DNA of 64,000 bases. Origin: an uncultured Clostridia bacterium. GTDB taxonomy: Bacteria; Bacillota; Clostridia; Christensenellales; Borkfalkiaceae. The DNA lies in the NCBI GenBank assembly GCA_947175515.1, contig CAMWNA010000001.1, forward strand, positions 637-64,636, given 5' to 3'. Positions 43,473-64,000 of the stretch are shown in pieces. A program made the position numbers and the translations under genes. Under the pieces are notes generated by a model that was not told the DNA's origin, ran no database searches, and worked only from the letters and a program-made list of their open reading frames with translations. Positions within the stretch are counted from its first letter, which is position 1. Each line of letters opens with the position of its first letter.

Positions 43473-44095
43473 TTGACCTCACAAAACGATATTGTCGCTT
43501 TAATTTTAGCATATGCCGCCAAATTTTTCAAGCTATATAATATCGGTAATTTGCAACTCGTCGTTTTAAACCCGAACAAATAAAAAAACCGGACTATAAA
43601 CTTAAAAATTTACAGACCGGTTTTCTGGCGCTTGTGATCAGACTTGTAAGAAGCGGCATGCCGCGACAGAGTAGCGTATTGTTACTTTTGCTTGCAAAAG
43701 TCAATCGCGTTCCGTATATGGTTGTTACATCGGATTTTAAGGCATATGCGTCAAATTTTCGTATTATTTAGACCGCACAAAATAAGGGCATTTTCAGCCA
43801 AAAACTCGCTAAAAACACCCTAAAATCAATACATTTCTTATATTTTCACAACTTATCCGTTTGTTAAAATTTCCCTAAAATCAGCAACTTCCCAAAACTT
43901 CCCAATTTCTTTCACAAAAATGAGCTAGCTTTTATAATTTTTTGCAAATTAAATAGCTAAATAGTTGAATATAAAAATCAATTAAAGCTTTGCTTAAAAC
44001 AAGTAGTTATAAAATAAAGTTAATAGCATAAAAGTGCGTGGCAGATTTTAGAATAATAAACAATTTCATGCCAAAATCAAAAAGCTAAACATAAT

Positions 44096-44143
44096 TTAAT
44101 CTATAAAGGGCAAGCGCAAAAGCGCCCGCCCTTTATAGATTAA
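44096..44143. terminator. Long perfect hairpin / terminator at the low-coordinate end of the AT-rich island
   Basis: 15-bp perfect arms TTAATCTATAAAGGG / CCCTTTATAGATTAA enclose a GCGC-AAAA-GCGC inner stem, 48 nt past the kinase-Nudix stop. Confidence 0.7.
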
Positions 44144-44190
44144 ATTAATTCTTATAGATATGTCCACTTCGCATTGATTAATCATTGAGT

Positions 44191-45618
44191 TTATTGGAAA
44201 TCGAAGAACGAAATTTGTGTTTTCGCTAGTTTTACATTAATACCAAAACATTTTTTTATAATTTCTATGCTCCAAGCTTCTAAAGACTCATTTTCATTTT
44301 CTATCAATTCATTTATATTGAGAAATTTCCCACTTTTACTTTTCCCTCTATTTTGAATGAGTTCTTCTGAGTCTATTGTTAATTTTTTCTTATCATCAAC
44401 TTTAATATGATAACAAATTGCAATATGTCTCTTGCTCCTTTCTAAATCAGGAGTGTAAATGCAGAAAGGCGTTGTATTTTCTAAAGAGAAGTTTACTCCA
44501 ATCTCTTCTCGCATTTCACGCAAAAGCGTATAATTGAAAATAGATAAATTATTGTGAGTATCTTTATCTGTTTTATCTTCAATTCTTGTATGCCCACCAA
44601 TATAAATTAGTAGCTTATCTTTTTCAGGATCATCATCAGAAACTGCTTTTGTCGTTTTTTTGACTGTGAGAACTCTTTTTGCTTTATAATCAGTTATTAC
44701 GACTATAGGTATAGGTTGTATTGCTTCATCATTGATTTCAACCTTTTCTCGTAGATCAAATTTTAAACTGCCGTTTAAAATTTTATTAAATTCATCAAAT
44801 TCGATGATTCGATGGTTCATCAAATATTCTTTGGCTTCACTTGAAGGGACAAAGTATCCAATTCGCTCCATTAATGTTTCCTTTAAAGTCGATAATACCT
44901 TTTTAGTTACTTCATAACTTACATCATTTTGATCCATATCTGAAGTATCCATAGGAATAATATTATGAAAATATTTCTTTTTAATATTAATTGTATTATG
45001 TATTGCTTCTTGATATTCGCCAAGAGTTTGATTATTCATTATTGTTCCCGTTTGGTCGGGTTTTAATAATAGTTTAGCATATTCACGATTTAAAGAAACT
45101 TCAGGTCTAGATTCAAAAGCGAAAATAATATCAATTTGCTTAGTAAATTCTTCCATTAAAAGAGGTGCTTCTATATTGTTTTTTTGTATTTTTGTAAGGC
45201 GTTTAATTTTATATAGCCATTCAAACCAACACATTGCATCAAATATACCCCTATCGATGATTAAAATGTCTGGTTTTTCACTTTTTCGATCAAGTATGGC
45301 CAACATATCAACTAAAGACTGATAGGCGGTCCATACGTTAAAAGTATAGTTTTGTTTGTCCGCAACAGGACATATACTTGCTTTTTCCTGTATTACTTCA
45401 ACTTTAAATTGATTTCTTTTTAGAAACAATTGTAAAGAACCTATAGAGGATGTTTTCCCGGACTTTGGAGAACCACTAAATTCAATAATAATTGGACGCA
45501 TTTGCCTATGCGTATTCTTTAGTTCTAAAACTTCTTTTGCTAATGTTGATAATTCTTTAATGTTTTTTTCTTTTTGTTTCTGTGCTTCATCTTTTTTCGT
45601 TGTCATCTTCGGTTTCAT
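44191..45618 (-). CDS. Fusion protein: N-terminal thymidylate/deoxynucleoside-kinase-like P-loop domain plus C-terminal Nudix-like hydrolase
   Basis: Walker A FSGSPKSGKTS and a DR motif (ILIIDRGIFD) as in Tmk/dNK-fold kinases. The C-terminus has GGHTRIE...REMREEIGV, i.e. the REUxEExGU part of the Nudix box with a longer than canonical spacer. RBS GAGGG lies 8 nt before ATG 45618. Confidence 0.7.
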   Translation of the reverse strand: MKPKMTTKKDEAQKQKEKNIKELSTLAKEVLELKNTHRQMRPIIIEFSGSPKSGKTSSIGSLQLFLKRNQFKVEVIQEKASICPVADKQNYTFNVWTAYQSLVDMLAILDRKSEKPDILIIDRGIFDAMCWFEWLYKIKRLTKIQKNNIEAPLLMEEFTKQIDIIFAFESRPEVSLNREYAKLLLKPDQTGTIMNNQTLGEYQEAIHNTINIKKKYFHNIIPMDTSDMDQNDVSYEVTKKVLSTLKETLMERIGYFVPSSEAKEYLMNHRIIEFDEFNKILNGSLKFDLREKVEINDEAIQPIPIVVITDYKAKRVLTVKKTTKAVSDDDPEKDKLLIYIGGHTRIEDKTDKDTHNNLSIFNYTLLREMREEIGVNFSLENTTPFCIYTPDLERSKRHIAICYHIKVDDKKKLTIDSEELIQNRGKSKSGKFLNINELIENENESLEAWSIEIIKKCFGINVKLAKTQISFFDFQ

Positions 45619-46198
45619 TGTTGTTTCCCTCTTCTGAAATATTTAATTTTTGAGATATTTTAAATCGACTAAACGCATCAAATTTATCAAGTAAATTACC
45701 AATCGAAAATCCAATAATACAAGATATTATCACTGAAAAATAAAAAAATCTATCATTAATAATATAATCCATAGATGAAGTTATAAGGATAAAGCCACCC
45801 AATAAGCTAAACACCGCTATTATAACAAACACGATGGCAAATAAAGGTCTTAAAATAAAATATAACACGTTTCCCAAAATTTGTTCACTAAAATCATCTC
45901 TAGGGTTATCGTTTTTTTTAATTATATCAATTCTTTTATCGATACATGCCTTATAAATTAATTGCAAATATTGAATTGAGCAAAAAGCACAAGTCATTCC
46001 AATCGAACATAAAATTGTAGTCAATAAGAGATTAGCCTTCAAATAGTATTCCAAATTAGATAAAATTATTATTGACCCAGTAATACCCAAAATTAATAAT
46101 AAAACGTAGTAAACAATGATAAGTACTGACCATGTTTTTGTAAGTGTGTATCTTAGATTCTTTCTCTTTTGCCATTTGGCATCTTTTTTATTGTCCAT
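45587..46198 (-). CDS. Four-TM membrane protein of unknown function
   Basis: 203 aa with a basic N-terminus, four hydrophobic helices and an acidic C-tail (EEGNNNETEDDNEKR). Its 3' end overlaps the kinase-Nudix start by 32 nt. Confidence 0.6.
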   Translation of the reverse strand: MDNKKDAKWQKRKNLRYTLTKTWSVLIIVYYVLLLILGITGSIIILSNLEYYLKANLLLTTILCSIGMTCAFCSIQYLQLIYKACIDKRIDIIKKNDNPRDDFSEQILGNVLYFILRPLFAIVFVIIAVFSLLGGFILITSSMDYIINDRFFYFSVIISCIIGFSIGNLLDKFDAFSRFKISQKLNISEEGNNNETEDDNEKR

Positions 46199-46400
46199 AA
46201 AAATCTTTACCTAAGTAATTATAGTATTATTATAGCATAAAAATATTTTGATTTCAATAGTGAATAACACTAAACGCTATAAATAACTATCAGCCGCATA
46301 TTCATCAATTCTGTCTTAATGATACTATTAAAACAAATTATTGCTCCCATTTTTTGCAGAATATAAACAACTAAACTAAATCTTGATTACAAGAAACATT

Positions 46401-46853
46401 TTAACGATTCTTTATAACTATCTTAAAAAAGTTTATACATGTCAAAACTAATAATATGATTGCAAAAATAAAACAAGCAATTGAAAACGAATTTAATATA
46501 TGTTGCGCCAACAAATATTCTTGCTCCGAATAAATGCAAATAGAAATAATAGAAACTATTATAACTACAGTAAACGAGATAATACTTATAATAAAATTGC
46601 GAGCAACTTGCTTATAGTAACCTTGCTTAATCAATGCTACTTTTATTTCCTCTCGTAAAGGAATTGAGTAATAAATTCCCAGAGCAGAAATTGTAAAACC
46701 AATAAATATACCTGCAGTTGTTAGTAGGGTAGAAGGCAGTTGTTCCGGGTTTATGATTAAAACATTTGTTGCCCCTAAAATTATAAAAGTAATTAATATT
46801 GTCAAACTTACTGCGGCTGAAACTATAATATGCTTTTCATTGGGTTTAATCAT
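46401..46853 (-). CDS. Four-TM small membrane protein of unknown function
   Basis: 150 aa with four hydrophobic helices. The start lies 5 nt after the stop of the 303-aa gene. Confidence 0.6.
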   Translation of the reverse strand: MIKPNEKHIIVSAAVSLTILITFIILGATNVLIINPEQLPSTLLTTAGIFIGFTISALGIYYSIPLREEIKVALIKQGYYKQVARNFIISIISFTVVIIVSIISICIYSEQEYLLAQHILNSFSIACFIFAIILLVLTCINFFKIVIKNR

Positions 46854-46858
46854 AATTA

Positions 46859-47770
46859 TTACTCCACATAGTTACTAAGAGCCAACACTAATTTGGTTTT
46901 TATTTTATCATACTTTTGCAAGTCAATATCATCTAAAGTTAAAACGGTTTTAACGGTAAAGTAATCTTCAAACAAATGTGTTATGTACTCGTTAAATTCC
47001 TCGTCTTGAAATTTTAAAACAGGTTTTTTAACTTTAATATGCCGATTAGGGTCTTGCACAATTTCTTTAATTAAATGTTTTGTAGGTCGTCTTACTTTAA
47101 TATAAATTGAAAACGAATTGATATTTCTATCCCAGTTTAGTGTCTGGTCAAGAGATTTTGAAATATCTCCACCGTTGTCCGCTATTTGGAATTCTATAGA
47201 CTGAAGTTTTTGCGAACGCTCAATTTTTTTAAGCAAATCGGCATTGCCCAAATAGTGAATAGAAATATTAATTTTACTATATTCAGATATGTATTTAGTA
47301 AGAAGTTTGTTTATATTTTTTAAACCTTTTTGCCCAATATAAACTATAGCCTTTTTCTCAATATCAATATAGAAAAAAGTAAAATATTTTATAATGATTG
47401 ATTTTATGCTTTCATTATTGGATGAATCTCGATACTCTTCCAATAAGTCATCAAATTCACGCTCGGTTGATATTTCGCCGAAATAATACTTATCAGTTGC
47501 CTCAATAATACGAATGCAATACCTTTGCTTATCACATTCATAATCAAAAGTACCTTTATCTGTATTATAGCTTTCATTAGAAATATTAAATGCACGTTCT
47601 AGGGCAGTTCGCAAATTAATCATTTGATCGCCAAAAACCCCAAACTGCTCAAAACTTGGGCTATCTATTTTCGCAAAACAGATAGTTTTAGAAAGTCCAC
47701 GTTCTTTTTTCTTCTTTTGTGGTATATTATCTCCAAATAAATTTTCCACTTCATCCTCCGTAAAATTCAT
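46859..47770 (-). CDS. Hypothetical protein, no recognisable domain
   Basis: 303-aa uninterrupted ORF, Lys/Ile/Asn-rich. Its ATG lies 2 nt after the upstream stop and its stop lies 5 nt before the next start. Confidence 0.55.
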   Translation of the reverse strand: MNFTEDEVENLFGDNIPQKKKKERGLSKTICFAKIDSPSFEQFGVFGDQMINLRTALERAFNISNESYNTDKGTFDYECDKQRYCIRIIEATDKYYFGEISTEREFDDLLEEYRDSSNNESIKSIIIKYFTFFYIDIEKKAIVYIGQKGLKNINKLLTKYISEYSKINISIHYLGNADLLKKIERSQKLQSIEFQIADNGGDISKSLDQTLNWDRNINSFSIYIKVRRPTKHLIKEIVQDPNRHIKVKKPVLKFQDEEFNEYITHLFEDYFTVKTVLTLDDIDLQKYDKIKTKLVLALSNYVE

Positions 47771-47772
47771 CT

Positions 47773-49464
47773 TTATTTAACAATCTCCCAGCAATAGCTA
47801 TCAAAACTAAAAATAGAGCGATTAAAACTAGCCTTTAATTCCTCAATATCCCTGCACAATTTTCCATAGACCCGACCCGTTTTATCAAAACTCATTTGTG
47901 GGTCTTCTTGAATTAAAACATACCAACCGCTATAAATATTGTGCGCTATTATTTCACTGCTGTCTCTTTCGTTCCATAATTGGAATAATGTTTTGCCCTG
48001 AAGTTGTACTTCTTTATCAAACTTTTTTGTAACGATTTCACCGTTTTTATTGTAAGTAATACCGACTATCCAGTCATCTTCTTTTTCAACATCTTCTACA
48101 GCTAAGAGATCTTGATATGATTGTACCCCAGATTTCCCAAAGCAACACCCACAATTGCATGTTTCCCCATTGACAACTATTTCACTATCAATACGATAGT
48201 TGCAATACCAGCATTCTATATCTTCAACACTATCTGAAGTAAGGGGACACGCAAAATAAGAATGGAGAACTCCTTGTCCCGAACCTCCTATGGGTTCGCA
48301 AATCTTCAACAATTTTTCTTTTGCCTTTAAGATTTCTTCGTGATGTATCCATTTCTTCTTTGAAATATCTGTTTGCAACAGATATTTCATTTCCGCATCT
48401 GTAACGCCATTTTTAGCCCACGACAAATCAATTTCAACTATATTAAATCTTTCGTCTTTTAGCCTTGATATTTCTTTTTCATCTGCACTTGATTTCATCC
48501 GAATCAATAGTGCAACAGGGTTGTCTTTACAATGTAAAATTATAGACTTTGGCGTACGAGCTTTTCCTTCATAGTAATATTCACTTTCTTGAAACTCTTC
48601 TGTCCAAGACTCTTTTATTACCATTCCCTTGCCCGCTGTTTTTAATATAATGTCTGGCAATTTCAATTTTTTCTCTGATTCAAATTGCGATTTTAGAAGT
48701 CCAAACAACTCTCCGCTAGTTCTGTACATTACAACTGCATTGTTAGACTCTGATTCATTCGTCCTCGGGAAATTAAACGGATTATTTGTTGACGTACGAA
48801 CGGGTTTTAATTCTTGTGCAACTTGTTTTGTCGTCGCTATTTCTTTCAAGGCAGTATTTAATGTTTCATTTGGTATCTCTATAGATGTTCTTACAGATTC
48901 TACAGGGTTTTTAGGCAATCCTCTTCTATATATCCATTCACCTAATGAGCCTCCTGATGACACTTTATCACTTTTCGCCCAGCTAAGCATTCGTTCCAAG
49001 CTTGTTGCAGCTTCCTCTTTACTTACTGCACGCATCCATTCAAAATCTCGATCAACATAGCTTTGTCGCAATTTTGATGGGTCTTTCAAAAACTCCTCAA
49101 TACTACCACATGCCAATATGATTTTTTTCGCAGTAATAGGATTTAGCAAGATATTTTCAAGCTTTGTAACCCATCTCAAATTTTCAGGGCGATTATTTCT
49201 GCGGTTTGTATCTATATGATCGACAACGTATTGCGATGATGGCGCTGCTCCATGAAATGCTGTCGCAACAATTCTATGTACCAGTTCCCCCGCAATTTCG
49301 GCATATCCGGTATTGGCATTGTATTTTCCAAAAGTCCAAACATTATCTGTCGGACGGGGCCTATTACCGATACGAGGATGACGCATAACCGTCCCGTTAT
49401 CTCGCACTGAATAAGTTTCACCTTTATAAGTACACTCTATTTCCTTTTCAAAATCATACAACAT
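47773..49464 (-). CDS. Multidomain protein: N-terminal phage-type HNH (HNH_3-like) nuclease, unknown central region, C-terminal Cys cluster
   Basis: HRIVATAFHG...VVDHIDTNRRNNRPENLRWVTKLEN is the HNH_3 pattern. The Cys cluster is CPLTSDSVEDIECWYCNYRIDSEIVVNGETCNCGCCFG. 563 aa. Confidence 0.65.
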   Translation of the reverse strand: MLYDFEKEIECTYKGETYSVRDNGTVMRHPRIGNRPRPTDNVWTFGKYNANTGYAEIAGELVHRIVATAFHGAAPSSQYVVDHIDTNRRNNRPENLRWVTKLENILLNPITAKKIILACGSIEEFLKDPSKLRQSYVDRDFEWMRAVSKEEAATSLERMLSWAKSDKVSSGGSLGEWIYRRGLPKNPVESVRTSIEIPNETLNTALKEIATTKQVAQELKPVRTSTNNPFNFPRTNESESNNAVVMYRTSGELFGLLKSQFESEKKLKLPDIILKTAGKGMVIKESWTEEFQESEYYYEGKARTPKSIILHCKDNPVALLIRMKSSADEKEISRLKDERFNIVEIDLSWAKNGVTDAEMKYLLQTDISKKKWIHHEEILKAKEKLLKICEPIGGSGQGVLHSYFACPLTSDSVEDIECWYCNYRIDSEIVVNGETCNCGCCFGKSGVQSYQDLLAVEDVEKEDDWIVGITYNKNGEIVTKKFDKEVQLQGKTLFQLWNERDSSEIIAHNIYSGWYVLIQEDPQMSFDKTGRVYGKLCRDIEELKASFNRSIFSFDSYCWEIVK

Positions 49465-49615: not shown

Positions 49616-50653
49616 TTATATATACAATTCTTTGGATAATTGTAGATCACACTGCCATTTAAATTGTTTGGCTACTTTTCGCTTGCGTATATAATCTTCC
49701 TTATCATAATAATAACATACAAAATGGGCATCATTATTAATCGCCTCGAATACAACATTATCAACCTCAGATAACGAGTGTCCTAAAATAACAACCTCAT
49801 CGTAGTGCTCATTTTTTAATTTTTCGATTATTTCTTGTCGAAAAGGCAAACAATTTTTACTCTTAATTCTAAGTAATTCTTTCAACTTGTCTGCACTATC
49901 TTTTACACTTGTCATTATTTCATTAAAAAAACGTACATACGATCCTTTCGGATGTAACTTATGGTTTTCATCTTCTTCATAATACGCCATCATTTCTTGT
50001 AATCCGAATTTACTTTTTTCAAAGCTGCCCATGGAAGGAAATTCACCATCAACAAAAACTTCATTCATCCTATCAATAGTATCACATCCAAGAAAAATTT
50101 TCTTATTTATATTTCCATGTATATGTATTACATCGTCTATACCATATAACTGTTCTACCGTGTTAGTATAATTGAACGATAAAATTTCATTAGCAGACTC
50201 TAATATTACTTTAATTTTTTCTTTTGGGAAAAAATTATTTCTAATATTATAATCATTGTATAATGCCCTTAAATATCCAGCAAACTCTCTTTCAAAATCG
50301 CAAAGCAATTTAACCCATATATCTATTTCGTCAATAAGCGAATTAAACATCTCATTATCATAACCATGATAATTTACATCCCCATATTTATTCAAACCAT
50401 AAGCATCAATAATACTACTCATCTCATCGTCAACTAGAAAAGGAATATCCAACTTACTTATAAATGTGTTTAATTTGCTTTTATAGTTGGTCTCAATTTC
50501 AGACCAACTATTCTTTCCATTCTTTAAATCAGCATATTTCCTATTTAAAACTTGAGAATTCGTTTCTATAAAATCTTCAAAATTTGTTTTTAATCCATGA
50601 CCCAAATCAAAGCCATTTCCAATTACAAATATTCTTTTCCCCAATTTATTCAC
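49616..50653 (-). CDS. abiH: AbiH-family abortive-infection protein
   Basis: The N-terminus IFVIGNGFDLGHGLKTNFEDFI matches the AbiH signature (GNGFDLxHGLxT.Y.DF); 345 aa; monocistronic spacing. Confidence 0.75.
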   Translation of the reverse strand: MNKLGKRIFVIGNGFDLGHGLKTNFEDFIETNSQVLNRKYADLKNGKNSWSEIETNYKSKLNTFISKLDIPFLVDDEMSSIIDAYGLNKYGDVNYHGYDNEMFNSLIDEIDIWVKLLCDFEREFAGYLRALYNDYNIRNNFFPKEKIKVILESANEILSFNYTNTVEQLYGIDDVIHIHGNINKKIFLGCDTIDRMNEVFVDGEFPSMGSFEKSKFGLQEMMAYYEEDENHKLHPKGSYVRFFNEIMTSVKDSADKLKELLRIKSKNCLPFRQEIIEKLKNEHYDEVVILGHSLSEVDNVVFEAINNDAHFVCYYYDKEDYIRKRKVAKQFKWQCDLQLSKELYI

Positions 50654-50911: not shown

Positions 50912-52654
50912 TTAATCTGCTGTCCATCGTGTTTCAAAATCTTCATTTTTTATTTTCAGTGCTTTGCTATATTTCTCATAAATATTTTTAAAGTTTAGCT
51001 TATAAGTTACCAATTGCATTCTAATAGCACTTTTAATATCAGATAAACAGCCTTTGTTTTTTACCCAGTTTTGAGGACTGAATATCTTTTTATTATCAAT
51101 AGCTTCTGATGAAGCATTTTCGAAGGCCATATTTAGGCATCCTCCAGCCATTTGCACAATTTCGCTCATCAACGAATACTCATTTAATTTTTTTAACACC
51201 GTATCGGGGTTTGGAACACTATCTGGCATCTTATTAATTTCGCAAAAAATAACAGAGATTGCGTACAGGTGATGATAAGGCGCATATGCTTTCATGGCAA
51301 GAAGCGATTCATTTAAACCAAGAGGATTATCTGGCGTCCATAATTCTGACACTGCTTCAAACAAATCTCTTAATGCCTGCATATTTTCAGGTAAATAATC
51401 TTTTTTAAAGAGTTGGCTAAAACATTTATCAAATATCTTTGTTTCACTATACGCTATTGTGGGACGCTGTGAATGCCAAGCTATTAATTGCTTACCTATA
51501 TCTGTCAAATTAATTACATGCTTAGGATTATATTTTATACAATCAACAACTTCCCCTCTTTTAGTTATAAAATATCCATCAGGAAAACGTTGTTCATAGG
51601 CTTTCTTCATTGCTAAAACATTTTTATCATTACTTCTGAGATCTCTTGCCTTAACTGCACTTTGCGAATTAGTTGATGTGCTAATTTTATCTGCCTTATC
51701 TGAATCGGTTATTTCATAAAAACGGAACATGATATAACCTTCATTCGAAGTTTTCACTGTTTCACTACAATTATAAATTGTGGTTAAAGATTGGCAACCA
51801 TTAACTATGTTTAATTCTTTAACGCTTAAAATATTTTCTTTTATGTCGATTTCGGAACATATTGCAGTTACACCATTATGCAAAAAGAAAAAGTTCTGTA
51901 TATCATTTTTAAGTGTATGTGCTATCCCTTTATTAACTTTATTACCACTACCTAATGACTGACGCACATTCTTACGGAAAAGCGTTTGATCTTTAATTCC
52001 TGGTATTTTTATACATTCTCTAAGCGGAATTGCAGCTATAACTGCTTTTGTCCCACTTAAATCTAATTCTATAAATTTACCGCTCTGTAAATTGAATTTA
52101 TGTGATATGTAAGGCTTAAATTTATTTAATGTTTCTAAGTATTTATTTTGTAATGTCGTGTTATCAATAAGCATTAAATTAGCTGTAAGCAAGTCGTCTT
52201 CCGCTAACTGTTTTTGGAACACTGCTAAATCTTTTTGAGCCGCTTCTGTTAAGGTAGACGTAGTCACTAATTCAAAGCATATGTCATAATCATCGTCAAT
52301 TGCATTTGATAACTCATTAATTTTTACTTTAAGCTTATCGTTTGCCGCTTCTTGCAATTTAGGCAAATCCTTTATAAGTATCCACGACGCTAAGACTTCT
52401 CTAAGCGGCTCTGAATCAACAACCTCTTTTGAATAAAATTTACCTTGAATTATATAAATCGTCGATGCTTGATTATCAATATAAACCGCATCAATTTGTT
52501 TATCGTTTGCTCCATCTGTAATACAATCTTTTGCTTGAATAGTATCTAAATTATGAATATTTCTTAAATACCATGCAATAAATCTTTGTCCGTCGTTTTG
52601 GTAATATTGTTGATAATATTCCTGTGAAATTTCTTCTTTGATTTTACTGTACAT
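50912..52654 (-). CDS. AIPR-family abortive-infection protein (N-terminal PD-(D/E)xK-like nuclease module)
   Basis: CITDGANDKQIDAVYIDNQASTIYIIQGKF is the typical AIPR N-terminal motif (DG.nD.GIDa..id....l.l.Q.K). 580 aa. Confidence 0.75.
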   Translation of the reverse strand: MYSKIKEEISQEYYQQYYQNDGQRFIAWYLRNIHNLDTIQAKDCITDGANDKQIDAVYIDNQASTIYIIQGKFYSKEVVDSEPLREVLASWILIKDLPKLQEAANDKLKVKINELSNAIDDDYDICFELVTTSTLTEAAQKDLAVFQKQLAEDDLLTANLMLIDNTTLQNKYLETLNKFKPYISHKFNLQSGKFIELDLSGTKAVIAAIPLRECIKIPGIKDQTLFRKNVRQSLGSGNKVNKGIAHTLKNDIQNFFFLHNGVTAICSEIDIKENILSVKELNIVNGCQSLTTIYNCSETVKTSNEGYIMFRFYEITDSDKADKISTSTNSQSAVKARDLRSNDKNVLAMKKAYEQRFPDGYFITKRGEVVDCIKYNPKHVINLTDIGKQLIAWHSQRPTIAYSETKIFDKCFSQLFKKDYLPENMQALRDLFEAVSELWTPDNPLGLNESLLAMKAYAPYHHLYAISVIFCEINKMPDSVPNPDTVLKKLNEYSLMSEIVQMAGGCLNMAFENASSEAIDNKKIFSPQNWVKNKGCLSDIKSAIRMQLVTYKLNFKNIYEKYSKALKIKNEDFETRWTAD

Positions 52655-52735
52655 AACAATTAATCCCCTTTGTATAATTAATGAAATTGTTTTGAAATTT
52701 TTTATGTTTTAAAAATTAGTAAATAAACTTTGTTA

Positions 52736-53365
52736 CTAAATTGATTCCTTGTCATTGATTAGGTCAATCACATGTTGTTCTAAAACAAAACAGAACTCAT
52801 CAAAAAATCCATTTTGCTTTTCCCTTAAACATGTTAATTCTTGACCCAAATCTTCTGGAAATTTAAGTTCATAATTTTCAATTGCATTTTTTCTTTGACT
52901 ATTCAAAAAATTAGTATTTAGCCCTAATATTCTTATGAGTTCTCTTCCAATTTCACCTTTACCCATAACTGTACCATCTTCAAAATAGGATAAAAGCCCT
53001 TCCACATTTTCTAGCGGAGAAATAGGAATATCTTTGTTCCCTTTCTTTGCATCACAATGAAGTTTATGCCTTGGTTTTACTCCATTTTCGCGATCTTTAT
53101 CACCGCCATCGCACGAAACTAACATGTTAGAGAAATCAAGCGCCAAATCATCGTGTTCCTCTTGACACTTTATATGCTCTATCTTTGTACGCTCATCATT
53201 TTTTATACGACAGCCACAATAACAACATATGTATCCCTGATCTTCTAACAGCCGCTTGCGTAAAGCCTTTTTGGGTTCTCCAGATAGCACATCAAATGAT
53301 ACACCAGGAGTTTTGCAAAATTCCGTAAATTCCACTGGAGGTGCCGTTTTAGTAATCTGCCTCAT
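52736..53365 (-). CDS. ptuB: Septu PtuB-like HNH endonuclease (TIGR02646-type)
   Basis: ICCYCGCRI...KIEHIKCQ...LHCDAKKGN is the HNH pattern of ATPase-associated TIGR02646 proteins. The start lies 1 nt after the ptuA stop. Confidence 0.75.
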   Translation of the reverse strand: MRQITKTAPPVEFTEFCKTPGVSFDVLSGEPKKALRKRLLEDQGYICCYCGCRIKNDERTKIEHIKCQEEHDDLALDFSNMLVSCDGGDKDRENGVKPRHKLHCDAKKGNKDIPISPLENVEGLLSYFEDGTVMGKGEIGRELIRILGLNTNFLNSQRKNAIENYELKFPEDLGQELTCLREKQNGFFDEFCFVLEQHVIDLINDKESI

Positions 53366-53366
53366 T

Positions 53367-56098: not shown

Positions 56099-57507
56099 TA
56101 CTTATTCTCCAACGCTTTAAGCTCTTTAATTACACTATTAATTAAATCAATAGCCTCTTCCAAGTTAGAAACAACCTCTTCGCCACTTTCTACAGGATCG
56201 GCTAAATCTTCGTAATCTTTAACGCTTTCATCCCGAATCAAGCCTAAATCCAAGCTATCGTTATATTCATTTTCTATTTGTTCGCGCGTAAAAGAAGACC
56301 AGCGCTCGCCCTTTCTTTGCGTTTTGTCGTTATACCCCAAAACAAACTCATCAAAATCACTATGACGGAGCGTTCTAGTTTTGCCAAAGCTGTCCATATT
56401 AGTACGCATATCGTAGAAAGTAACTTCTTTAGTATTATCTTTTTCGGTAACGCCACGAGTAAAGAACAGCACATTTGTTTTTACGCCTTGCGCATAGAAA
56501 ATACCTGTAGGAAGGCGCAAAACAGTATGCAGGTTACAAAAATCCATAAGTTGTCTTCTTACGCTTATTCCATCGCCACTAGCAAAGAGTACATTATCCG
56601 GTAACACGACCGCGCAACGTGCCTTTCCGTCTGCCTTTAAACTACGATATATAACCTGCAAGAAGTTGAGTTGTTTATTCGATGTTTGGAAATCGATATC
56701 GTCACGTGTAGGACGCTCTCCTCCTTTCTTGTTTCCAAATGGCGGGTTTGTCAGAATAACGTCAAACCCATTTAATCCCTTTGCGCTTTGTGAAAGCGAA
56801 TCGCCAAGAACAATGTTCGCGTTTACATTATGAAGGTACGCATTCATAAGTGCAAGACGATGTGTTTCGTGGACAAGCTCTACTCCGTTAAACGCTTTAT
56901 TCCTTTGAAAATCTGCTTGTCTATCTGTCAACTTATAAAAATCAATGTTTTGATTTACGAAAGTATTTGCGGCAATCATGAAACCAAACGTGCCACAAGC
57001 AGGGTCAAAACATCTTTCTCCAAGTTGCGGAGCGACAAGTTTTGTCATTATGTCAATCAAAACTCTGGGAGTAAAATACTGACCTGCGCCCGATTTTTTC
57101 TCGTTTGCATTCTTTTCGAGCAAACCCTCATATAAATCACCAAGCCCCTCTTCTTTTGCTTCGTACCAGTCAAGCCTGTCAATTTCTTTTATAATTTTTT
57201 CAAGATTTTTGGGCTCTTCTATGCTTGAAGACGCATTAGCATAAATTTGAGCAACTTTACCAACAGATTTTTCACCCAGTTCGGTAAGCAAGGTATAATA
57301 ATACTTTTTGAGCTCTAATCCTGACTTATTAGTAAGAGAATCCCAACGATATTCCTGCGGAATTTCGCTTTCAGCGCCTGTTTCTTTTGCCATTTTCAAG
57401 AAAAGAATATAAGTAAGTTCGGTAACGTATTGGTGATAGGTAATTCCGTCATCCCTTAATACGTTACATAAATTCCAAAGTTTTTGTACTATGTCTTGCG
57501 TACTCAT
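56098..57507 (-). CDS. hsdM: Type I R-M N6-adenine DNA methyltransferase subunit
   Basis: HsdM N-terminal domain (LWNLCNVLRDDG), motif I FDPACGTFGF, motif IV LTNPPFG. 469 aa. Confidence 0.95.
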   Translation of the reverse strand: MSTQDIVQKLWNLCNVLRDDGITYHQYVTELTYILFLKMAKETGAESEIPQEYRWDSLTNKSGLELKKYYYTLLTELGEKSVGKVAQIYANASSSIEEPKNLEKIIKEIDRLDWYEAKEEGLGDLYEGLLEKNANEKKSGAGQYFTPRVLIDIMTKLVAPQLGERCFDPACGTFGFMIAANTFVNQNIDFYKLTDRQADFQRNKAFNGVELVHETHRLALMNAYLHNVNANIVLGDSLSQSAKGLNGFDVILTNPPFGNKKGGERPTRDDIDFQTSNKQLNFLQVIYRSLKADGKARCAVVLPDNVLFASGDGISVRRQLMDFCNLHTVLRLPTGIFYAQGVKTNVLFFTRGVTEKDNTKEVTFYDMRTNMDSFGKTRTLRHSDFDEFVLGYNDKTQRKGERWSSFTREQIENEYNDSLDLGLIRDESVKDYEDLADPVESGEEVVSNLEEAIDLINSVIKELKALENK

Positions 57508-60500
57508 TATGCTACTCCTTGCTCATAGATATAGGTGTTTATTTCTCTGATGATTTCCAAAAGCTTTCCTTCAAACTTAACGTTAAAGCGTTTAAATCCG
57601 CCATCCATTTTGAAAGCAGGCGCTTCAAAGGTTTCTACGTTTAACAGACTTTCGTGAAGCATATAGGTTTTTATTTTTTCAAGAAGGTCGATTTGAATTT
57701 TATTAAAGCTATGCGCTTTGATTAGTTTTTCAAAAGCTATTTTTATTTTGTCTTCTCTATTAAAAACAGGGACGTCTAAGACGGCGTTTCGAACGTAAGA
57801 AATTATATCGGCAACGATGTCTGCATTTTTAACTACACTTGTTGCGTTGTTAAGTGAAGTTTCGTTATATCCTTCTTTATCCAGTGCAAGTCTAAGTTCA
57901 CGAAGTTGTGCTCTCGTTAAATCTGAAGGCTTGGTGCAGGCAATTTTAATTGCTTCAATTTTATCTTTGTTTTCGTTTACGAATTTTGTAAAAGCATCAA
58001 GATAATCGTCGGGTTTATCGGTTTTGCCATATCCTCTTGTGGTTTCTTGCAAAGTGTCTTTTCGTTCCGAATAATATTGTCCTTTCTTCGGCGAAGTAAT
58101 GCTTTCAATATAAACCAAAGTTTCAGCGTCTTTTATAAGCATATCAACAGCCTGTTGCACAGACAAAACCTTGATGCTTGCAACATATTGCGGTATTGAT
58201 TTGCCTATATTTTCTTTGACCTCATATCTTTGGTCTTCAGAAAGTGCATTGTTTTTGCGTTGTAGTTTTGCCAAAATTCTATCTATTATCTGTTGCTTAC
58301 TGTTTTGGGAAGGGTGTGACAACTCTTCAATGAGTTCCATCATTGACTTGTTCACGGAAACGGCCCTCATTGAATTCACCGAACCTAAATCCTCATAAAC
58401 GTGCGCAGGATCAAAAATATTAAAGTGTGTTTTTTGAATTTCTTTGCAAAGGCGCGTAGCACGACCCAACATTTGCTCATATAAAATACGGCTATTGATT
58501 TTGCGCATAAAAACCAAATTGCAAATTTGAGGGACATCGATACCCGTTGTCAACAAATCTACAGTTACGGCAATATTGGGATATTGGTTATTTTTATACT
58601 GTTTGATTACTTGCTCTATTTTCTTTTTGCTGCCACTTGCCGTTTTGCCGGTAATCTTTACAATCGCGTCATTCGACACGCCCCATTCCGAATATATCTC
58701 ACGGAGAGTTGCGACAATGTTATCCGCATGATTATCGTTTACGGCAAAAATCAGCGTTTTTTCACGACCTTCAGGATTGATATAATTTGAAATTTCTTTT
58801 AAAACCTTTTGGGTATGATCTGGCAAGACTATCTTTCGATTGAAATCCGACACATCAAAATCCAGTTCATCCTGTAGAACTTCACCATTTATGAGCTCGC
58901 CCGTATTAGGATCGAACATACCAAGTTGTTCGCCTTTTTTAAATGTTACAGGACTGGTATTAAAATCAGTATTTATAATATACGGAGGATCGTGATCAAC
59001 CAGCCATCCGTCAATTACCGCTTCCCTATAACTGTAAGTAAATATGGGTGAACCGAAAATTTGCGTAGTATGAAGCGCAGGTGTTGCCGTCAATCCTATT
59101 TTTACCGCATCGAAATATTCAATGACTTGCTTATACTTACCTAAATAATCGTCCTGCGAGTCATAAAGCATTTCATCTGCCGACATTTCTTTGTCAAGTA
59201 TATATCCTCGGTGTGCTTCATCAACTATAATTAAGTCAAAAGCACCAGAAGTAAGTTCAGGTTTTTCAGCTAAAATTGTTCTTTTAAGTAAACCTTGAAC
59301 AGTTGAAACACTTACCTTTGTTTCAAGATCCACCGTTTTATCTTCTATATCTTTAACGTCGTAAATTTGGCAAAGCGTTTGGAGTTCTTTCAGCTTTACA
59401 TCTTTAAACGTGTCCATAGCCTGTCCACCAAGCGCAGTTCTATCTACAAGAAACAATATACGCTTAAAACGTTTTGTTTCCAGCATTTTATAGATTAGAC
59501 CTAAGACAGTTCTTGTTTTGCCCGTACCTGTGGCCATTGCAATCAACACATTTTGTTGACCATTAATAATTGCTTGAGTTGCCTTATTTATTGCTTTTAT
59601 CTGATAATCACGTAAATTAAGTCCATTAGGATCTGCCATATACGAGTCGTCAGAAGTGGTAAGGGCGTTGTTTGCCTCCTCCACATTTTGTTTTAATTTT
59701 GCCATCAAGTCGTCTGGACTAAACCAATTGCGTATGGGATACGAGATATTTGAAAGCTGTCTTGCATCTAAATACCATATGCCTGATTTCGTTTTGATTT
59801 GCTCTAAATACGGTCTACCATTAGTTGCAAAAAGAAATGGCACGCTACAGCCAACCCAGTTATCAATAATAAAATTGGCGTGTTCGGGTTTAATATTTTT
59901 AGCGTAGTCTTTAATCTGCACATCAATCGTAGATGCTACATCTTCAGCGGGCTTTTTTGCATCAATCAACCCAACAAATTGTTCACCGACAAACAAAGCG
60001 TAATCGGCAAAACCTTTTGCCATTGCTGAAGAATTTGTCGGCCATTCAGCTATTGCCATATTGCGACCTTTAACTGGTCTAGATCCTTTACTATATCTTA
60101 TAACTTGTGTGTCAGCTTCCCACCCCGCTTTTCTTAACTGCTCGTCAATAAAAAACCTAATTTGTTTCTCTGAAAGAGTCATAAGCTTTGCATTTTGCTC
60201 AGACTTTCTGCGATTTTGTTGAATATTTGATTTATACTTAATGGGTGCGATAGGGACAATACTCTTTAGTCTAGCGATTTCATCTTCTTGTTCTTGTATT
60301 ATTTTTGCATAATTCGGTGCTTTTTCGGGCAAAACATATTCGCTGTATACAGTAGTTGCACTCCCATACGTAGCATTAAACCAAACACATAATTTATAAG
60401 AAAGTTCAAGCATCAATTTTGCCCTTTCAAAGGAATCTAAATTAGCGTGAACAGCTTCGTTTCTTGCTTTTCTTAGACCATATAAAATATCATCAATATC

Positions 60501-60731
60501 TCTTGGTAAAAGATGTTTTACTTTTAGTTGACGTATTTTATCTGCCTGCGTGTTTTCCTCTTCGGGCATAATAATACCATTAGCGTCAACAATGTAAGTT
60601 ACAATATATTCCGCAAGCATACCAAGCTTTATCAAACAAGAATTCGGATCATCGTGTATGTAATTTTCTGCCGATTGAGCCAATTTTGCTATTAACGGCC
60701 ATTCCTCTTGTAAGAAATCGAAATTTGACAT
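57507..60731 (-). CDS. hsdR: Type I R-M restriction/helicase subunit with a DUF4145-like N-terminal extension
   Basis: MATGTGKTRT (motif I), IIVDEAHRG (DEAH), QMLGRATR (motif VI). The N-terminal ~110 aa (FDFLQEEWP...LRKARNEAVHAN) look like DUF4145. 1074 aa. Confidence 0.95.
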   Translation of the reverse strand: MSNFDFLQEEWPLIAKLAQSAENYIHDDPNSCLIKLGMLAEYIVTYIVDANGIIMPEEENTQADKIRQLKVKHLLPRDIDDILYGLRKARNEAVHANLDSFERAKLMLELSYKLCVWFNATYGSATTVYSEYVLPEKAPNYAKIIQEQEDEIARLKSIVPIAPIKYKSNIQQNRRKSEQNAKLMTLSEKQIRFFIDEQLRKAGWEADTQVIRYSKGSRPVKGRNMAIAEWPTNSSAMAKGFADYALFVGEQFVGLIDAKKPAEDVASTIDVQIKDYAKNIKPEHANFIIDNWVGCSVPFLFATNGRPYLEQIKTKSGIWYLDARQLSNISYPIRNWFSPDDLMAKLKQNVEEANNALTTSDDSYMADPNGLNLRDYQIKAINKATQAIINGQQNVLIAMATGTGKTRTVLGLIYKMLETKRFKRILFLVDRTALGGQAMDTFKDVKLKELQTLCQIYDVKDIEDKTVDLETKVSVSTVQGLLKRTILAEKPELTSGAFDLIIVDEAHRGYILDKEMSADEMLYDSQDDYLGKYKQVIEYFDAVKIGLTATPALHTTQIFGSPIFTYSYREAVIDGWLVDHDPPYIINTDFNTSPVTFKKGEQLGMFDPNTGELINGEVLQDELDFDVSDFNRKIVLPDHTQKVLKEISNYINPEGREKTLIFAVNDNHADNIVATLREIYSEWGVSNDAIVKITGKTASGSKKKIEQVIKQYKNNQYPNIAVTVDLLTTGIDVPQICNLVFMRKINSRILYEQMLGRATRLCKEIQKTHFNIFDPAHVYEDLGSVNSMRAVSVNKSMMELIEELSHPSQNSKQQIIDRILAKLQRKNNALSEDQRYEVKENIGKSIPQYVASIKVLSVQQAVDMLIKDAETLVYIESITSPKKGQYYSERKDTLQETTRGYGKTDKPDDYLDAFTKFVNENKDKIEAIKIACTKPSDLTRAQLRELRLALDKEGYNETSLNNATSVVKNADIVADIISYVRNAVLDVPVFNREDKIKIAFEKLIKAHSFNKIQIDLLEKIKTYMLHESLLNVETFEAPAFKMDGGFKRFNVKFEGKLLEIIREINTYIYEQGVA

Positions 60732-60750
60732 AATGTCTCCATATTTAAAA

Positions 60751-61641
60751 TCAATACTTTATCTCAAAATAATCAAGATACTTTTTAAACTTATCTTGTG
60801 CCATTAGGCAGGTGTCACGCAGGTAGCCACGCTCGTTTGCCCATTCTTTCAGTCCACGATAATAAAACAGTTTTAGTTCTGCATCTATTATGAACGGCAC
60901 AATATTATACTTTAAACAGTCTTTGAATAATAGCAGTCTTCCGATGCGCCCGTTACCGTCTTGGAAAGGATGAATACACTCAAACCGATAATGAAAATCC
61001 AAGAGGTCATCAAAAGTCTTTTCCTTTTTAGCGTTGTATTCAAAAAGCAACGCTTTTATTTTATCGGCAACCTCTTCAGGCTGTGCCGTGTACATATTAC
61101 CAACGGTATTCGGCAATTTTTTATAATCACCTACCGCAAACCAGTCCTGCCGAGAATCCGTCGTTCCACTCTTTAGTGTACGATGTAATTCTTTAATGAA
61201 GGCTTCTGTAATCGGCTTCTTAGCGTTATCGATAATCATATCAATACACTTAAAGTGATTAGCCGTTTCGACTATATCGTCAACTTTGACCGCTTCGCCA
61301 TCAATACCTATTGTGTTAGTTTCAAAAATATATCGGGTTTGGTCATGGGTTAATCGGCTACCTTCAATATGATTAGAATTGTACGTTAAATCAATTTGAA
61401 CTTTATGATATATTCCGCCTGAAAGTTTAGCTTTTTTTTCTGCCGAAAGCTCTTCCAACAAAGTTGATGGCAATTCAACCTTTTTATTGACTCTATCAGG
61501 CTTTTGAGCATCTTCCGGAATATTCCAAGTTTTTCCCGTTAAAAAAACCCCATCAATTTTACCCAAAGCACAGTAGTTACGAACACTACGTTCTGATATA
61601 TTCCATTTTTTTGCAATTTCCGTAACAGATAAATACTTCAT
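60751..61641 (-). CDS. HTH-Fic family protein (AMPylase/Fido fold)
   Basis: Fic motif HPFQDGNGRIGRLL. N-terminal MerR/excisionase-like HTH LSVTEIAKKWNISERSVRNYC. The start at MKYLSV (61641) sits behind GAGGTG. The stop lies 19 nt before the hsdR start. Confidence 0.9.
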   Translation of the reverse strand: MKYLSVTEIAKKWNISERSVRNYCALGKIDGVFLTGKTWNIPEDAQKPDRVNKKVELPSTLLEELSAEKKAKLSGGIYHKVQIDLTYNSNHIEGSRLTHDQTRYIFETNTIGIDGEAVKVDDIVETANHFKCIDMIIDNAKKPITEAFIKELHRTLKSGTTDSRQDWFAVGDYKKLPNTVGNMYTAQPEEVADKIKALLFEYNAKKEKTFDDLLDFHYRFECIHPFQDGNGRIGRLLLFKDCLKYNIVPFIIDAELKLFYYRGLKEWANERGYLRDTCLMAQDKFKKYLDYFEIKY

Positions 61642-61786
61642 AGCATAGCACCTCATATAAGAGCATATCATATTATCGGCAAAAAATCAATGTATAATGC
61701 AAATTAATTTGTTATGATTTTGCCGTTATCGGCATATCTATTAGGCGCTGTATTTATAACAAAATCTACAAGCATTTAAATTAATT

Positions 61787-64000
61787 CTATAAATTATATT
61801 TTCCTTTTAAAATTAAATAATCTTTACTGTAGTTAGGTAATTTTAAATTCCTAATAACTTTGTTACAAACTTCAGGCATCCAAAATATTGTTAAAAACGA
61901 TTTAGCTCTTGTTATTGCAGTATAAAAAACGCTGTGCGTTATCTTGTCTTCCGTGTCATCAGCAATAACTATTTTAACGGAATCATATTCCAGACCTTGT
62001 GATTTGTGAATTGAAACTGCATATGCTACTTCAAACGGCAAAATATGACTTTTATCGTCCGTTTCCTCATCACTTGAATACGGTGGACGCCTGTTAACAT
62101 TAAAACTTACTATTGTTTCGCCTGCTGTTGCACTGACAAAAGTCAGTCCTTCACACGCTTCCACCTCATCCTTTGTAAACTCCGAAAATACTTTAATCCT
62201 AAAATTGACGTAAGAATTAAAATCTTCTATCCCAACAATTTTTCCCTTTAAGTTGTTATATAGAATATCAAATCTTTCAGAATCATTAAAGAGAATGGGA
62301 TCATCAACTTTGAACTGCCAAACATTAATCGTTACCGGCTTATTTTTATTCCCGATCTGCAATAATCTATTTATATTATTGAGACCGTATAAGCCGTTGT
62401 AATTCAGGCATAAGATTATCTCATCATCGGCTTTTTTATCAAAGATTTCTTTATCCGCATCTATAGGACGAGAATAATGATTTCTAACCAATTCTTCCAA
62501 AATGAGATTATCGTCCTTTAATTGTCTCGCTTCATTCCATAAAGATTTGAGTTCTTCATCAGTGCTTCTGAAAGTTGTCTGTAAATTGCCACAACAATAT
62601 TCCGGCAACATACAATTAGCAATATAAAACCAATTACCAAAGCCAATAGCTTGTATTTGATATATGTCGCCAACTAATAGTAGAACTCCGCCTCCAATTC
62701 TATTGATAATTTTCAATATTTCATCATTCTTAACGGTGCTACACTCATCAACCACAATCAAATCATATTCGACGCCGCTATATCTTCTATTTTTAAGAAA
62801 GGTATCGATTGTTAAAAACTCGTCTCCTTCTTCCCTATGTGTTACCTTGTGCCTTAAATTTTCTTTTGCCGGATTTGTCTTAGATAAAAACACTTTCCTT
62901 GTTCCTGCCATAACTTTAGTAACATAATTAATAAGCGTTGATTTACCTGTTCCGGCAGAACCATAAACGAGCCTGACACGCGATTTTGTAAACATGTTAA
63001 GCAGTATCTCTTTTTTTGCAGGGTCTGTTAACCGTTCAGTCGGTGACTCATAATTTTCAAGCTCTTTAATATTTTCTTCATTGAACAAATTCTCCCCTAT
63101 TAAGCCACTCTGTGCTAGACATGATAAATTTTTAAGAACGCTAAGCAGGTTAGATTCGTCTCCCTTTATATAAAGATAGTCCTTGTAAATTCCTATTTCC
63201 GAATCCGGCTTAAAACCTGAATAAACTAAATCGTTATATTGCTCTACCAAATTTTTAATTTTTGCTTCATCACCAAACTCTTTCAATTCATCAAAAGAAG
63301 TGTACAATTTACACTCCTGACTTAAATTGATAGATAAAACTTTTGCCAACAAACTCGGAATATTAAACTCCTCATTTAAACTTTCAAGCACATCGGAAAA
63401 GTTTGCCCTATGTCCTTTGGGATTAAAAGACAACGGCAGCTCATCGAAAGATTGACAACCTCTTGGAATGTTTAGGCTGTACATGCCCTCCTTTATATAA
63501 GGAAATTGCATCTTAATTATTCTGTTATTCATACGACAAAGCAAATATCTTAAAAGATTCTTACCTTTCGTATTCCTTTCAGAAAAATATCTGCAAACTT
63601 TGAGTATTGCAAAAATTTTAGAACGTTTATCCCTTGTTGAATTGACTACCAGATTTTTTACTTTTTCATAATCCTCATCATCAAAATCAATAATATCGAG
63701 AAGTGTCAGCCTGTTGCCTGTCATATAATTCATAAGCGTAGAATACTCAGCTTCCGACCTCTTGATTTCAACGCCAATTCCTAATAACTTTGCAAAATTT
63801 TTAATTTCACAAGGTCGAATTGATGTTTCCCATCCTGTTATAATTTTTACGGGGAAATCAACACCGAACACATGAACTTCTTTTTGTGTAAAACTCAAGG
63901 CAGTACAGTAATTAGATATAAACTCACCCTTGCAAAATGCCGTAATTCTGTTAAATTTGTTTGGCTTTTCGTCCGCAGGTTCCAATGTAACTTCATAAAA
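61787..64000 (-). CDS. SF1 RecD/TraA-like helicase with a ~340-aa uncharacterised N-terminal region (5' end may lie beyond the window)
   Basis: Walker A YGSAGTGKST, Walker B LIVVDECST, LLLVGDIYQ, C-terminal AVSIHKSQGLEYD and FYTAITRAK (UvrD_C_2 type). The frame stays open to position 64000; the TTG at 63985 is only a possible start. Confidence 0.8.
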   Translation of the reverse strand, partial: FYEVTLEPADEKPNKFNRITAFCKGEFISNYCTALSFTQKEVHVFGVDFPVKIITGWETSIRPCEIKNFAKLLGIGVEIKRSEAEYSTLMNYMTGNRLTLLDIIDFDDEDYEKVKNLVVNSTRDKRSKIFAILKVCRYFSERNTKGKNLLRYLLCRMNNRIIKMQFPYIKEGMYSLNIPRGCQSFDELPLSFNPKGHRANFSDVLESLNEEFNIPSLLAKVLSINLSQECKLYTSFDELKEFGDEAKIKNLVEQYNDLVYSGFKPDSEIGIYKDYLYIKGDESNLLSVLKNLSCLAQSGLIGENLFNEENIKELENYESPTERLTDPAKKEILLNMFTKSRVRLVYGSAGTGKSTLINYVTKVMAGTRKVFLSKTNPAKENLRHKVTHREEGDEFLTIDTFLKNRRYSGVEYDLIVVDECSTVKNDEILKIINRIGGGVLLLVGDIYQIQAIGFGNWFYIANCMLPEYCCGNLQTTFRSTDEELKSLWNEARQLKDDNLILEELVRNHYSRPIDADKEIFDKKADDEIILCLNYNGLYGLNNINRLLQIGNKNKPVTINVWQFKVDDPILFNDSERFDILYNNLKGKIVGIEDFNSYVNFRIKVFSEFTKDEVEACEGLTFVSATAGETIVSFNVNRRPPYSSDEETDDKSHILPFEVAYAVSIHKSQGLEYDSVKIVIADDTEDKITHSVFYTAITRAKSFLTIFWMPEVCNKVIRNLKLPNYSKDYLILKGKYNL

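Follow-up and report, generated by a model that had tools for sequence, protein, structure and literature searches.

The 64,000-nucleotide stretch of DNA considered here (hereafter the window; positions 637-64636 of contig C1 of genome G000, assembly GCA_947175515.1, the contig continuing for 1,706 bp past it) very probably contains part of a 29.1-kb, 22-gene integrative island, inserted in a tRNA-Leu(UAA) gene of an uncultured gut Clostridia bacterium. Of this island, the attR-proximal 20.3 kb fall within the window, and the data support its interpretation as a horizontally acquired, strain-variable defence island. Composition, the anatomy of the attachment (att) sites, the link between two contigs, the distribution of the island family and the variability of its cargo were all observed directly, and are described in turn below.

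Composition and extent of the island

Near 43.5 kb, windowed GC content drops from 0.45-0.50 to 0.28-0.38, and it does not recover before the window ends. The DNA from 43584 to the end of contig C1 has 33.3% GC, compared with 45.9% for the remainder of the contig and 44.6% for the genome, and the stretch from 43584 onward is the lowest-GC 20-kb segment of the entire 1.69-Mb, 104-contig assembly. The GC content at third codon positions (GC3) is 0.268±0.043 for 14 open reading frames (ORFs) of the island and 0.525±0.057 for 29 core ORFs, without overlap between the two sets (Mann-Whitney p=1.5e-7), and the combined fraction of Lys, Asn and Ile is 0.256 in island ORFs versus 0.198 in core ORFs. 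Both the AT-rich shift and the Lys/Asn/Ile-rich proteins described in a first-pass annotation of the window are thereby confirmed. All ORFs of at least 150 aa between 44191 and 64000 lie on the minus strand, as also described there, but they number 14 and not 15. The same annotation had named two observations that would speak against an acquired island, namely the absence of a composition shift and a gene set conserved as core across the genus. The shift is in fact extreme, and the island DNA occurs only as scattered pieces in the 155 other species of the genus.

The extent of the island differs from that first proposed. Its left boundary is not at 43584 but at a crossover core located at 43732-43741. 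On the right, the island does continue past the window as anticipated, through the remaining 1.7 kb of contig C1, an 851-bp gap and 6.2 kb of contig C55, so that the distance from core to core, by arithmetic from the att coordinates, is 29,075 bp. The absence of an integrase gene was correctly noted for the window, but does not hold for the island as a whole, which encodes a 410-aa tyrosine integrase on contig C55.

Attachment sites and contig linkage

The sole intact tRNA-Leu(taa) gene of the assembly (C55:4287-4373) follows genes for tRNA-Val, tRNA-Gly and tRNA-Cys, with a Phage_integrase ORF directly downstream and DNA of 30-41% GC from there to the contig end. The encoded 410-aa protein (Int) matches Phage_int_SAM_3, Phage_int_M, Phage_integrase and phrog_1 (7e-41), and the stop of its gene lies about 110 nt from the tRNA gene at attL. 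Contig C1 could not be connected to other contigs by end overlap, with no k-mers of 21-127 nt in common. An exact-protein look-up with the 916-aa helicase encoded at the right edge of the window retrieved an ENA metagenome contig of 20,659 bp (L040, ERZ14208453), on which the intact tRNA-Leu(taa) (468-554) and the adjacent integrase gene (665-1897) are both found. Contigs C55 and C1 can be joined because L040 is 100% identical to both C55:3820-10577 and C1:66342-53293, and spans the gap between them, which holds one more gene. The ORF that starts on the plus strand at G000:C1:66258-66342, outside the window and about 85 nt before the contig end, corresponds in L040 to a gene for a 342-aa helix-turn-helix (HTH)/sigma-like protein of the island backbone, which fills the inter-contig gap. 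At the other end, a Logan contig from a different run (L097) reproduces positions 38909-45006 of the window at 100% identity, so that the junction of core and island is not chimeric.

The attR site (43626-43921) consists of a tRNA remnant followed by a conserved arm. The remnant (43626..43741, minus strand), delimited by alignment to C55:4287-4373, is a decayed 3′ half of tRNA-Leu(UAA) reaching from the CCA end to the anticodon loop. Its acceptor/T-stem stretch is retained with 2 mismatches in 21 nt, and its T-loop is broken by a 56-bp insertion (43647-43702). The longest exact block common to attL and attR is a 10-bp core, CTTAAAATCC in the tRNA sense (43732..43741, minus strand), which sits at the point where tRNA identity stops; it lies in the anticodon loop and is presumed to be the crossover region. 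A hairpin with a T-run, read from the sequence at 43589..43626 (minus strand) just past the 3′ end of the remnant, is placed as is the hairpin after the intact tRNA-Leu on L040, and is likely to be the ancestral tRNA-Leu terminator on the chromosomal side. The arrangement as a whole thus combines an intact tRNA gene and its neighbouring tyrosine integrase gene at one end with a second, directly repeated tRNA 3′ segment at the other (10-bp core, 21-nt acceptor stretch and decayed middle), in DNA whose composition is unlike that of the host and whose content varies among relatives.

The arm, a conserved non-coding sequence of about 190 bp (43742..43921, no strand assigned), was delimited by DNA search across the genus. 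Within it, ACTTCCCAA is repeated in tandem (43887-43905) and CCCTAAAATCA is present twice; the corresponding piece (43735-43925) is present in at least 40 of 156 genus genomes at 69-90% identity. Among 12 fetched loci, the arm lies in 11 (only partly in L038) at the GC break, which separates DNA of 45-52% GC from DNA of 30-38% GC. The aligned arms begin abruptly at TTTTAAGGCATATGCGTC, and in 8 of the 12 related loci they are directly preceded by the reverse complement of the tRNA-Leu(UAA) 3′ half, uninterrupted. The 9-mer ACTTCCCAA occurs only four times in the window and L040 taken together, as one tandem pair per arm in the same orientation, and the 10-bp core is likewise confined to the two ends; the tandem TTGGGAAGT repeats of both arms are probably arm-type sites for binding by the N-terminal domain of the integrase. 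Since ARAGORN detects no tRNA in the window or at the junctions of the 12 related loci, the tRNA pieces found there are fragments and not genes. The possibility that the arm is itself an RNA gene was rejected for want of a Rfam match: a scan of 42800-64000 at E≤1 placed no family on the arm, and gave only a chance miRNA match on the terminator hairpin. The 56-bp insertion in the T-loop includes a pair of short palindromes, GCGGCATGCCGC and ACTTTTGC..GCAAAAGT. At least 10 genus genomes have copies of the right part of this insertion at other loci, with 85-95% identity, including two copies within 4.5 kb in one of them (G102:C6), and the insertion may represent a miniature repeat element.

The anatomy of both ends suggests that the tyrosine integrase would have used the anticodon loop of tRNA-Leu(UAA) as the point of insertion for the element. 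In doing so the island would have brought a new 3′ half, keeping the tRNA intact at attL, and the displaced chromosomal 3′ half, since decayed, would have been left at attR (43626-43741). A backbone comprising int, genes for the 67-aa, 272-aa and 342-aa HTH/sigma-like proteins and a gene for a 212-aa XRE protein is kept between species, with the remainder as exchangeable, putatively anti-phage cargo, nearly all of it transcribed towards attR up to one strong terminator. The element may be competent for excision at present, and would presumably move between cells.

A family of islands in related gut bacteria

Homologues of the integrase (E≤1e-30) are found in 103 of the 156 genus genomes, at 90-95% identity in about 15 species and at 64-83% in about 15 more. 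In 24 of 34 related loci, a tRNA-Leu(taa) gene adjoins the integrase gene or its C-terminal remnant, in most cases at about 100-115 nt; at several loci only the C-terminal remnant is left beside the tRNA, and one locus (L056) features int with little or no cargo. The hosts are uncultured gut Clostridia, mostly from mouse and rabbit gut. Other backbone genes recur with the integrase in other species, with identities of 90-95% for the 67-aa ORF, 80-89% for the 272-aa ORF, 89% for the 212-aa XRE protein and about 30% for the 342-aa protein.

The cargo, by contrast with this backbone, is exchanged. Other species carry different cargo at the same tRNA-Leu site, with the same integrase and arm. A DNA search of the island against the 156 genus species gave no collinear match, and the cargo of the window has no matches in some 60 fetched loci except for Fic and an hsdR fragment. 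At the protein level, a full-length homologue of the kinase-Nudix protein described below is found in 1 of 156 genomes, and AIPR homologues, at only 25-32% identity, in 7 of 156. For some cargo, identity is 91-97% between species with core genes that can barely be aligned, a sign of recent exchange. A 453-aa cargo protein is 91-94% identical in islands of four species (L028, L029, L037, L039), and a 1,598-aa protein and its neighbour are 91-92% identical in two (L035, L039). A mini-island in yet another species (G134:C15:1636-5166; L031/L046) consists of int, a 406-aa internal fragment of HsdR 97% identical to that of the window, and the arm, and has the appearance of a window-like island reduced by deletion. 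In 13 loci, 67 of 69 ORFs on the island side point to attR, compared with 60 of 84 on the core side, a contrast that is descriptive only as these loci are related to one another.

Other low-GC patches in the same genome are probably further islands: a region falling to 30% GC (C3:10000-15000), an integrase gene encoding a 43%-identical protein beside tRNA-Gln (C9:21038-22413), and an integrase gene with a Fic paralogue (C21:17500-23051).

Gene content

Read in the sense of the tRNA, the island begins with tRNA-Leu, int and the 67-aa and 272-aa ORFs, followed by genes for an OLD-family nuclease (692 aa), a possible 72-aa XRE protein, an HNH_4 protein (104 aa), and the 342-aa HTH/sigma-like and 212-aa XRE proteins. 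Next come the PDC-S53 helicase, Fic, HsdR, HsdM, HsdS, PtuA, PtuB, AIPR and AbiH, and last a 563-aa HNH_3 protein (HNH_3-563), a 303-aa protein, two proteins with predicted transmembrane (TM) segments of 150 aa (TM150) and 203 aa (TM203), the kinase-Nudix protein, the terminator, the arm and the tRNA 3′ remnant. The terminator (44096..44143, minus strand), with a stem of 20 bp, closes the co-directional train of genes. In the part beyond the window, the OLD-family ATPase-TOPRIM nuclease matches PADLOC models Old (2e-20) and AriA (6e-22); it is followed by the 72-aa XRE and 104-aa HNH_4 ORFs (G000:C55:7500-10254, L040 3681-6435), and the three may constitute a further defence module.

The first-pass identification of AbiH, AIPR, PtuA/PtuB, HsdR/M/S and Fic is upheld by matches to Pfam and PADLOC models, and all features that follow are on the minus strand. 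At the window edge, a gene for an SF1 RecD-like helicase (61787..64000; PDC-S53, 2.7e-244) is cut; in full, as read in L001, it encodes 916 aa and ends 538 nt outside the window. Downstream of it lies the gene for an HTH-Fic protein (60751..61671; Pfam Fic 3.5e-18, PDC-S04 1e-110) with motif HPFQDGNGRIGR. The type I restriction-modification (R-M) system (54713..60731) has its three genes together, hsdR (57507-60731), hsdM (56098-57507) and hsdS (54713-56098), with matches to REase_I (2e-205), MTase_I (5e-199) and Specificity_I (4e-93), two Methylase_S stretches, and NPPF, GTGKT and DEAH motifs in the translations. Residues 1-176 of HsdR form an extra N-terminal DUF4145 domain, which matches the N-terminus of PADLOC PDC-M16A at 3e-23. 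A Septu system (52736..54701) is formed by genes 1 nt apart for the PtuA ATPase (53367-54701; PADLOC 6e-46) and the PtuB HNH nuclease (52736-53365; 2e-45). The AIPR/AbiU-type protein (50912..52654) matches PF10592 (4.8e-35, 122 bits with a cut-off of 25) and PADLOC AbiU (5.8e-36), and AbiH (49616..50653) matches PF14253 (1.3e-32, 114 bits with a cut-off of 30.9) and PADLOC AbiH (2e-18). Both pass their family thresholds, their function being assigned from sequence.

The MADS system (mad1-8) was considered for the block of R-M, PtuA and Fic genes and rejected. In PADLOC scans of the island proteins, the matches to mad2, mad3 and mad5 (1.5e-59, 9e-29 and 7e-41) are far below the type I and PtuA matches of the same proteins, those to mad1 and mad8 are borderline, and there is none to mad4, mad6 or mad7. 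An integron-like cassette array was also rejected as the basis of the single-strand layout, as there are no repeated recombination sites between genes.

Candidate modules among the unassigned genes

Five unassigned genes of the window resolve into three independent modules that move separately, rather than into two operons: TM203 with the kinase-Nudix gene, the 303-aa gene with TM150, and HNH_3-563 by itself. The argument from association with defence genes gains weight from the other contexts of these modules, since each of them is also found next to R-M or Abi genes or within a prophage elsewhere. None of the three is matched by a model of PADLOC-DB 2.0.0, beyond a generic HEase match to the N-terminal HNH domain of the 563-aa protein.

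The first module consists of the gene for TM203 (45587..46198, minus strand), a protein with four predicted TM segments, and that for the 475-aa kinase-Nudix protein (44191..45618, minus strand), whose start it overlaps by 32 nt. The 475-aa protein matches no curated family at threshold in Pfam, PADLOC and further family scans, yet has at least 477 clusters of full-length homologues at about 50% identity. Its AlphaFold2 (AF2) model has a mean confidence (pLDDT) of 87, and Foldseek matches its N-terminal domain to dGK/dCK/TMPK and its C-terminal one to the Nudix protein Tm1382. The protein is thus predicted to be a deoxynucleoside/dTMP-kinase-like P-loop domain fused to a Nudix domain. In every context read, the kinase-Nudix homologue is preceded by a gene for a 147-204-aa protein, 22-96 nt apart or overlapping, and those partners that were translated, of 147-170 aa, have 3-5 predicted TM segments and 38-49% identity to TM203. 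The neighbours of the module elsewhere are AbiEii with transposases, an EcoRV-type R-M system, or variable genes. In a further island with 82% nucleotide identity (L095, Logan ERR14656751, 10,286 bp), the module is likewise attR-proximal, followed by the arm and a perfect tRNA-Leu 3′ half. This contig contains both candidate pairs in another order and orientation, and between them lies a BpuSI-like type IIG enzyme along with two methyltransferases.

The second pair, TM150 (46401..46853, minus strand; four TM segments) and the 303-aa protein (46859..47770, minus strand), belongs to a rare family: the 303-aa protein has about 30 clusters by word-index search, and 1.84 billion proteins include 27 representatives. 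In three unrelated contexts, a TM150 homologue (68-86% identity) begins 2-5 nt after the 303-aa homologue: following a phase-variable type I R-M system, in a prophage beside an ImmA-like gene, and beside AbiEii. The AF2 model of the 303-aa protein has a pLDDT of 69, and its only structural match is RdgC-like and weak (probability 0.96, TM-score 0.32). HNH_3-563 (47773..49464, minus strand), with an N-terminal HNH_3 nuclease domain (Pfam 6e-19), has more than 100 clusters of full-length homologues. Their neighbours vary from one context to the next, on one occasion within another defence island, and the 303-aa/150-aa pair is not found beside them in the contexts read. This points to HNH_3-563 as a stand-alone mobile gene. 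A three-gene operon of HNH_3-563, the 303-aa gene and TM150 was rejected, as HNH_3 homologues occur alone and the 303-aa/TM pair occurs without HNH_3.

The genes of the island presumably act in defence. It is possible, if somewhat doubtful, that at least one of the two pairs of a soluble and a 4-TM protein represents a new membrane-acting anti-phage system, in which the enzyme would sense or alter the nucleotide pool and thereby gate a membrane effector. TM203 with the kinase-Nudix protein is the stronger candidate, as it is paired in every context and represented by at least 477 clusters in gut Clostridia. A literature search found no paper in which phage defence is linked to a Nudix domain together with a deoxynucleoside kinase.

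Alternative explanations

Several observations weigh against a simple history of integration into tRNA-Leu(UAA). No genome was found in which the core flank of the window (TetR-DUF308-ABC) adjoins an empty site; among relatives, the TetR/ABC flank genes occur only in G009 (69% identity), which is not syntenic and has no tRNA near these genes. The attR site is decayed, with exact identity over 10 bp left at the crossover and the T-loop interrupted by 56 bp, so that the element may be fixed in place. Arrangements beyond simple integration are found in some relatives: in L029, L034 and L036 the arm does not abut a 3′ half but is followed, after about 70 nt, by a tRNA-Leu-like pseudogene, and in G046:C6 (L038/L050) the arm and fragment are inverted relative to an intact tRNA-Leu 4 kb away, with tRNA-Cys and tRNA-Leu 13.5 kb apart. 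Finally, one study may be the source of L040, the NCBI record and the Logan contig alike, so that the assemblies are independent and the samples perhaps not. An artefact of assembly or binning, whereby low-GC DNA from another organism was misjoined to this metagenome-assembled genome, is scarcely credible. The genome is in 104 contigs and the island is split over two of them, but the junction is internal to a contig in each of three assemblies (NCBI, ENA, Logan), which agree at 100% identity, the attR remnant matches the genome's own tRNA-Leu, and junctions of this type are repeated in dozens of genus genomes.

Alternatively, the region could be a non-mobile genomic sink in which defence genes have built up piecemeal, the integrase gene and the tRNA fragment being relics of an unrelated old event. 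The decay of attR would fit such a history, as would the independent movement of the kinase-Nudix, 303-aa/TM and HNH_3 modules, which are also found outside such islands, and the range of GC content inside the island, from 28% to 38%. It is decidedly improbable, however, since the integrase ORF is intact and strongly conserved (90-95% identity across about 15 species), the arm and its repeats are conserved at both ends, no internal att copies are found in the island, and a related island (L095) has retained a perfect tRNA 3′ half at attR. The differences in whole-island cargo between species at one site are compatible with replacement by integration and equally with shuffling in place. A further proposal refines the reading as an integrative island rather than opposing it: the element could depend on a helper, as a phage satellite or an integrative mobilizable element (IME) with a backbone that hijacks a phage or a conjugative element. 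In its favour, the backbone is 80-95% identical across species with core genes too diverged for DNA alignment, some cargo is 91-97% identical between species, which implies recent transfer, and integrase-only islands at tRNA hotspots in E. coli have been proposed to be uncharacterised satellites (PMC10121019). Set against this, no primase or replicase, packaging or capsid gene, relaxase or coupling protein was found with Pfam, PHROGs, NCBIfam and PADLOC, and for TraA/TraI models the match of the helicase is confined to their helicase part, with scores far short of the cut-offs. More specifically, no replication or capsid-hijack family of a satellite was detected by these scans among the 8 integrase-proximal genes and the cargo of the window (the PHROGs scan leaving out AbiH, AIPR, PtuA/B and HsdRMS, and the NCBIfam scan HsdRMS, PtuA/B and AbiH), and the single resemblance to an integrative and conjugative element or IME is this TraA/TraI helicase domain, at 20-33 bits compared with cut-offs of 590-930. 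We regard helper dependence as unlikely for this island. Separately, the int/67/272/342/XRE backbone may define an undescribed family of helper-dependent elements in Christensenellales-like gut bacteria.

Relation to known systems and significance

As an integrative island, the element is of a known kind, the closest described being the integrase-associated defence islands at tRNA hotspots of E. coli. In that species, 18 of 41 defence hotspots are in tRNA loci, the mobilisation of integrase-only islands is unexplained, and P4-like satellites also occur at tRNA hotspots (Hochhauser, Millman & Sorek 2023, PMC10121019). Like the integrase-only islands, the present one has a tyrosine integrase gene beside a tRNA gene, no other recognisable mobility genes, and a cargo that consists almost wholly of defence genes and varies between genomes at one site. 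Unlike them, it resides in an uncultured lineage of gut Clostridia, uses the anticodon loop of tRNA-Leu(UAA) as its site, and belongs to a family with its own 190-bp arm, a small backbone and cargo that is almost strictly co-directional towards attR. Integrative islands in tRNA genes with a crossover in the anticodon loop were reportedly described by Williams in 2002. The present island resembles these in the restoration of the tRNA at attL beside int, the 3′ fragment as a direct repeat at attR and the end of identity within the loop, a likeness drawn from att anatomy and not from an integrase tree; it differs in that the displaced fragment has decayed and acquired the 56-bp insertion.

The satellite phage P4 integrates in the tRNA-Leu gene leuX. 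P4-like satellites and phage-inducible chromosomal islands share with the present island an integrase at a tRNA gene, an XRE-type regulator and variable defence cargo, but no primase or replicase, capsid-size-redirection or packaging gene was found in the scans of this island. As to the cargo, the PADLOC candidates (PDCs) are 145 untested candidates from guilt-by-embedding, and Septu attached to another system has also been described (Payne et al. 2024, bioRxiv 10.1101/2024.01.29.577857). Two such candidates are present here, PDC-S04 (Fic) and PDC-S53 (helicase), both directly upstream of the type I R-M system and co-oriented with it.

The value of the element lies in the att/arm tag and in three delimited candidate modules. 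Five anonymous genes are narrowed to discrete units that are clearly bounded, have conserved partners and can now be cloned and challenged with phage. With att sites, integrase and arm supplied, the arm is usable as a sequence tag for retrieving variable defence cargos, in the hundreds, from gut metagenomes. More generally, the defence islands of abundant uncultured gut Clostridia appear to be organised as in E. coli, with an integrase, a tRNA hotspot and exchangeable cargo.

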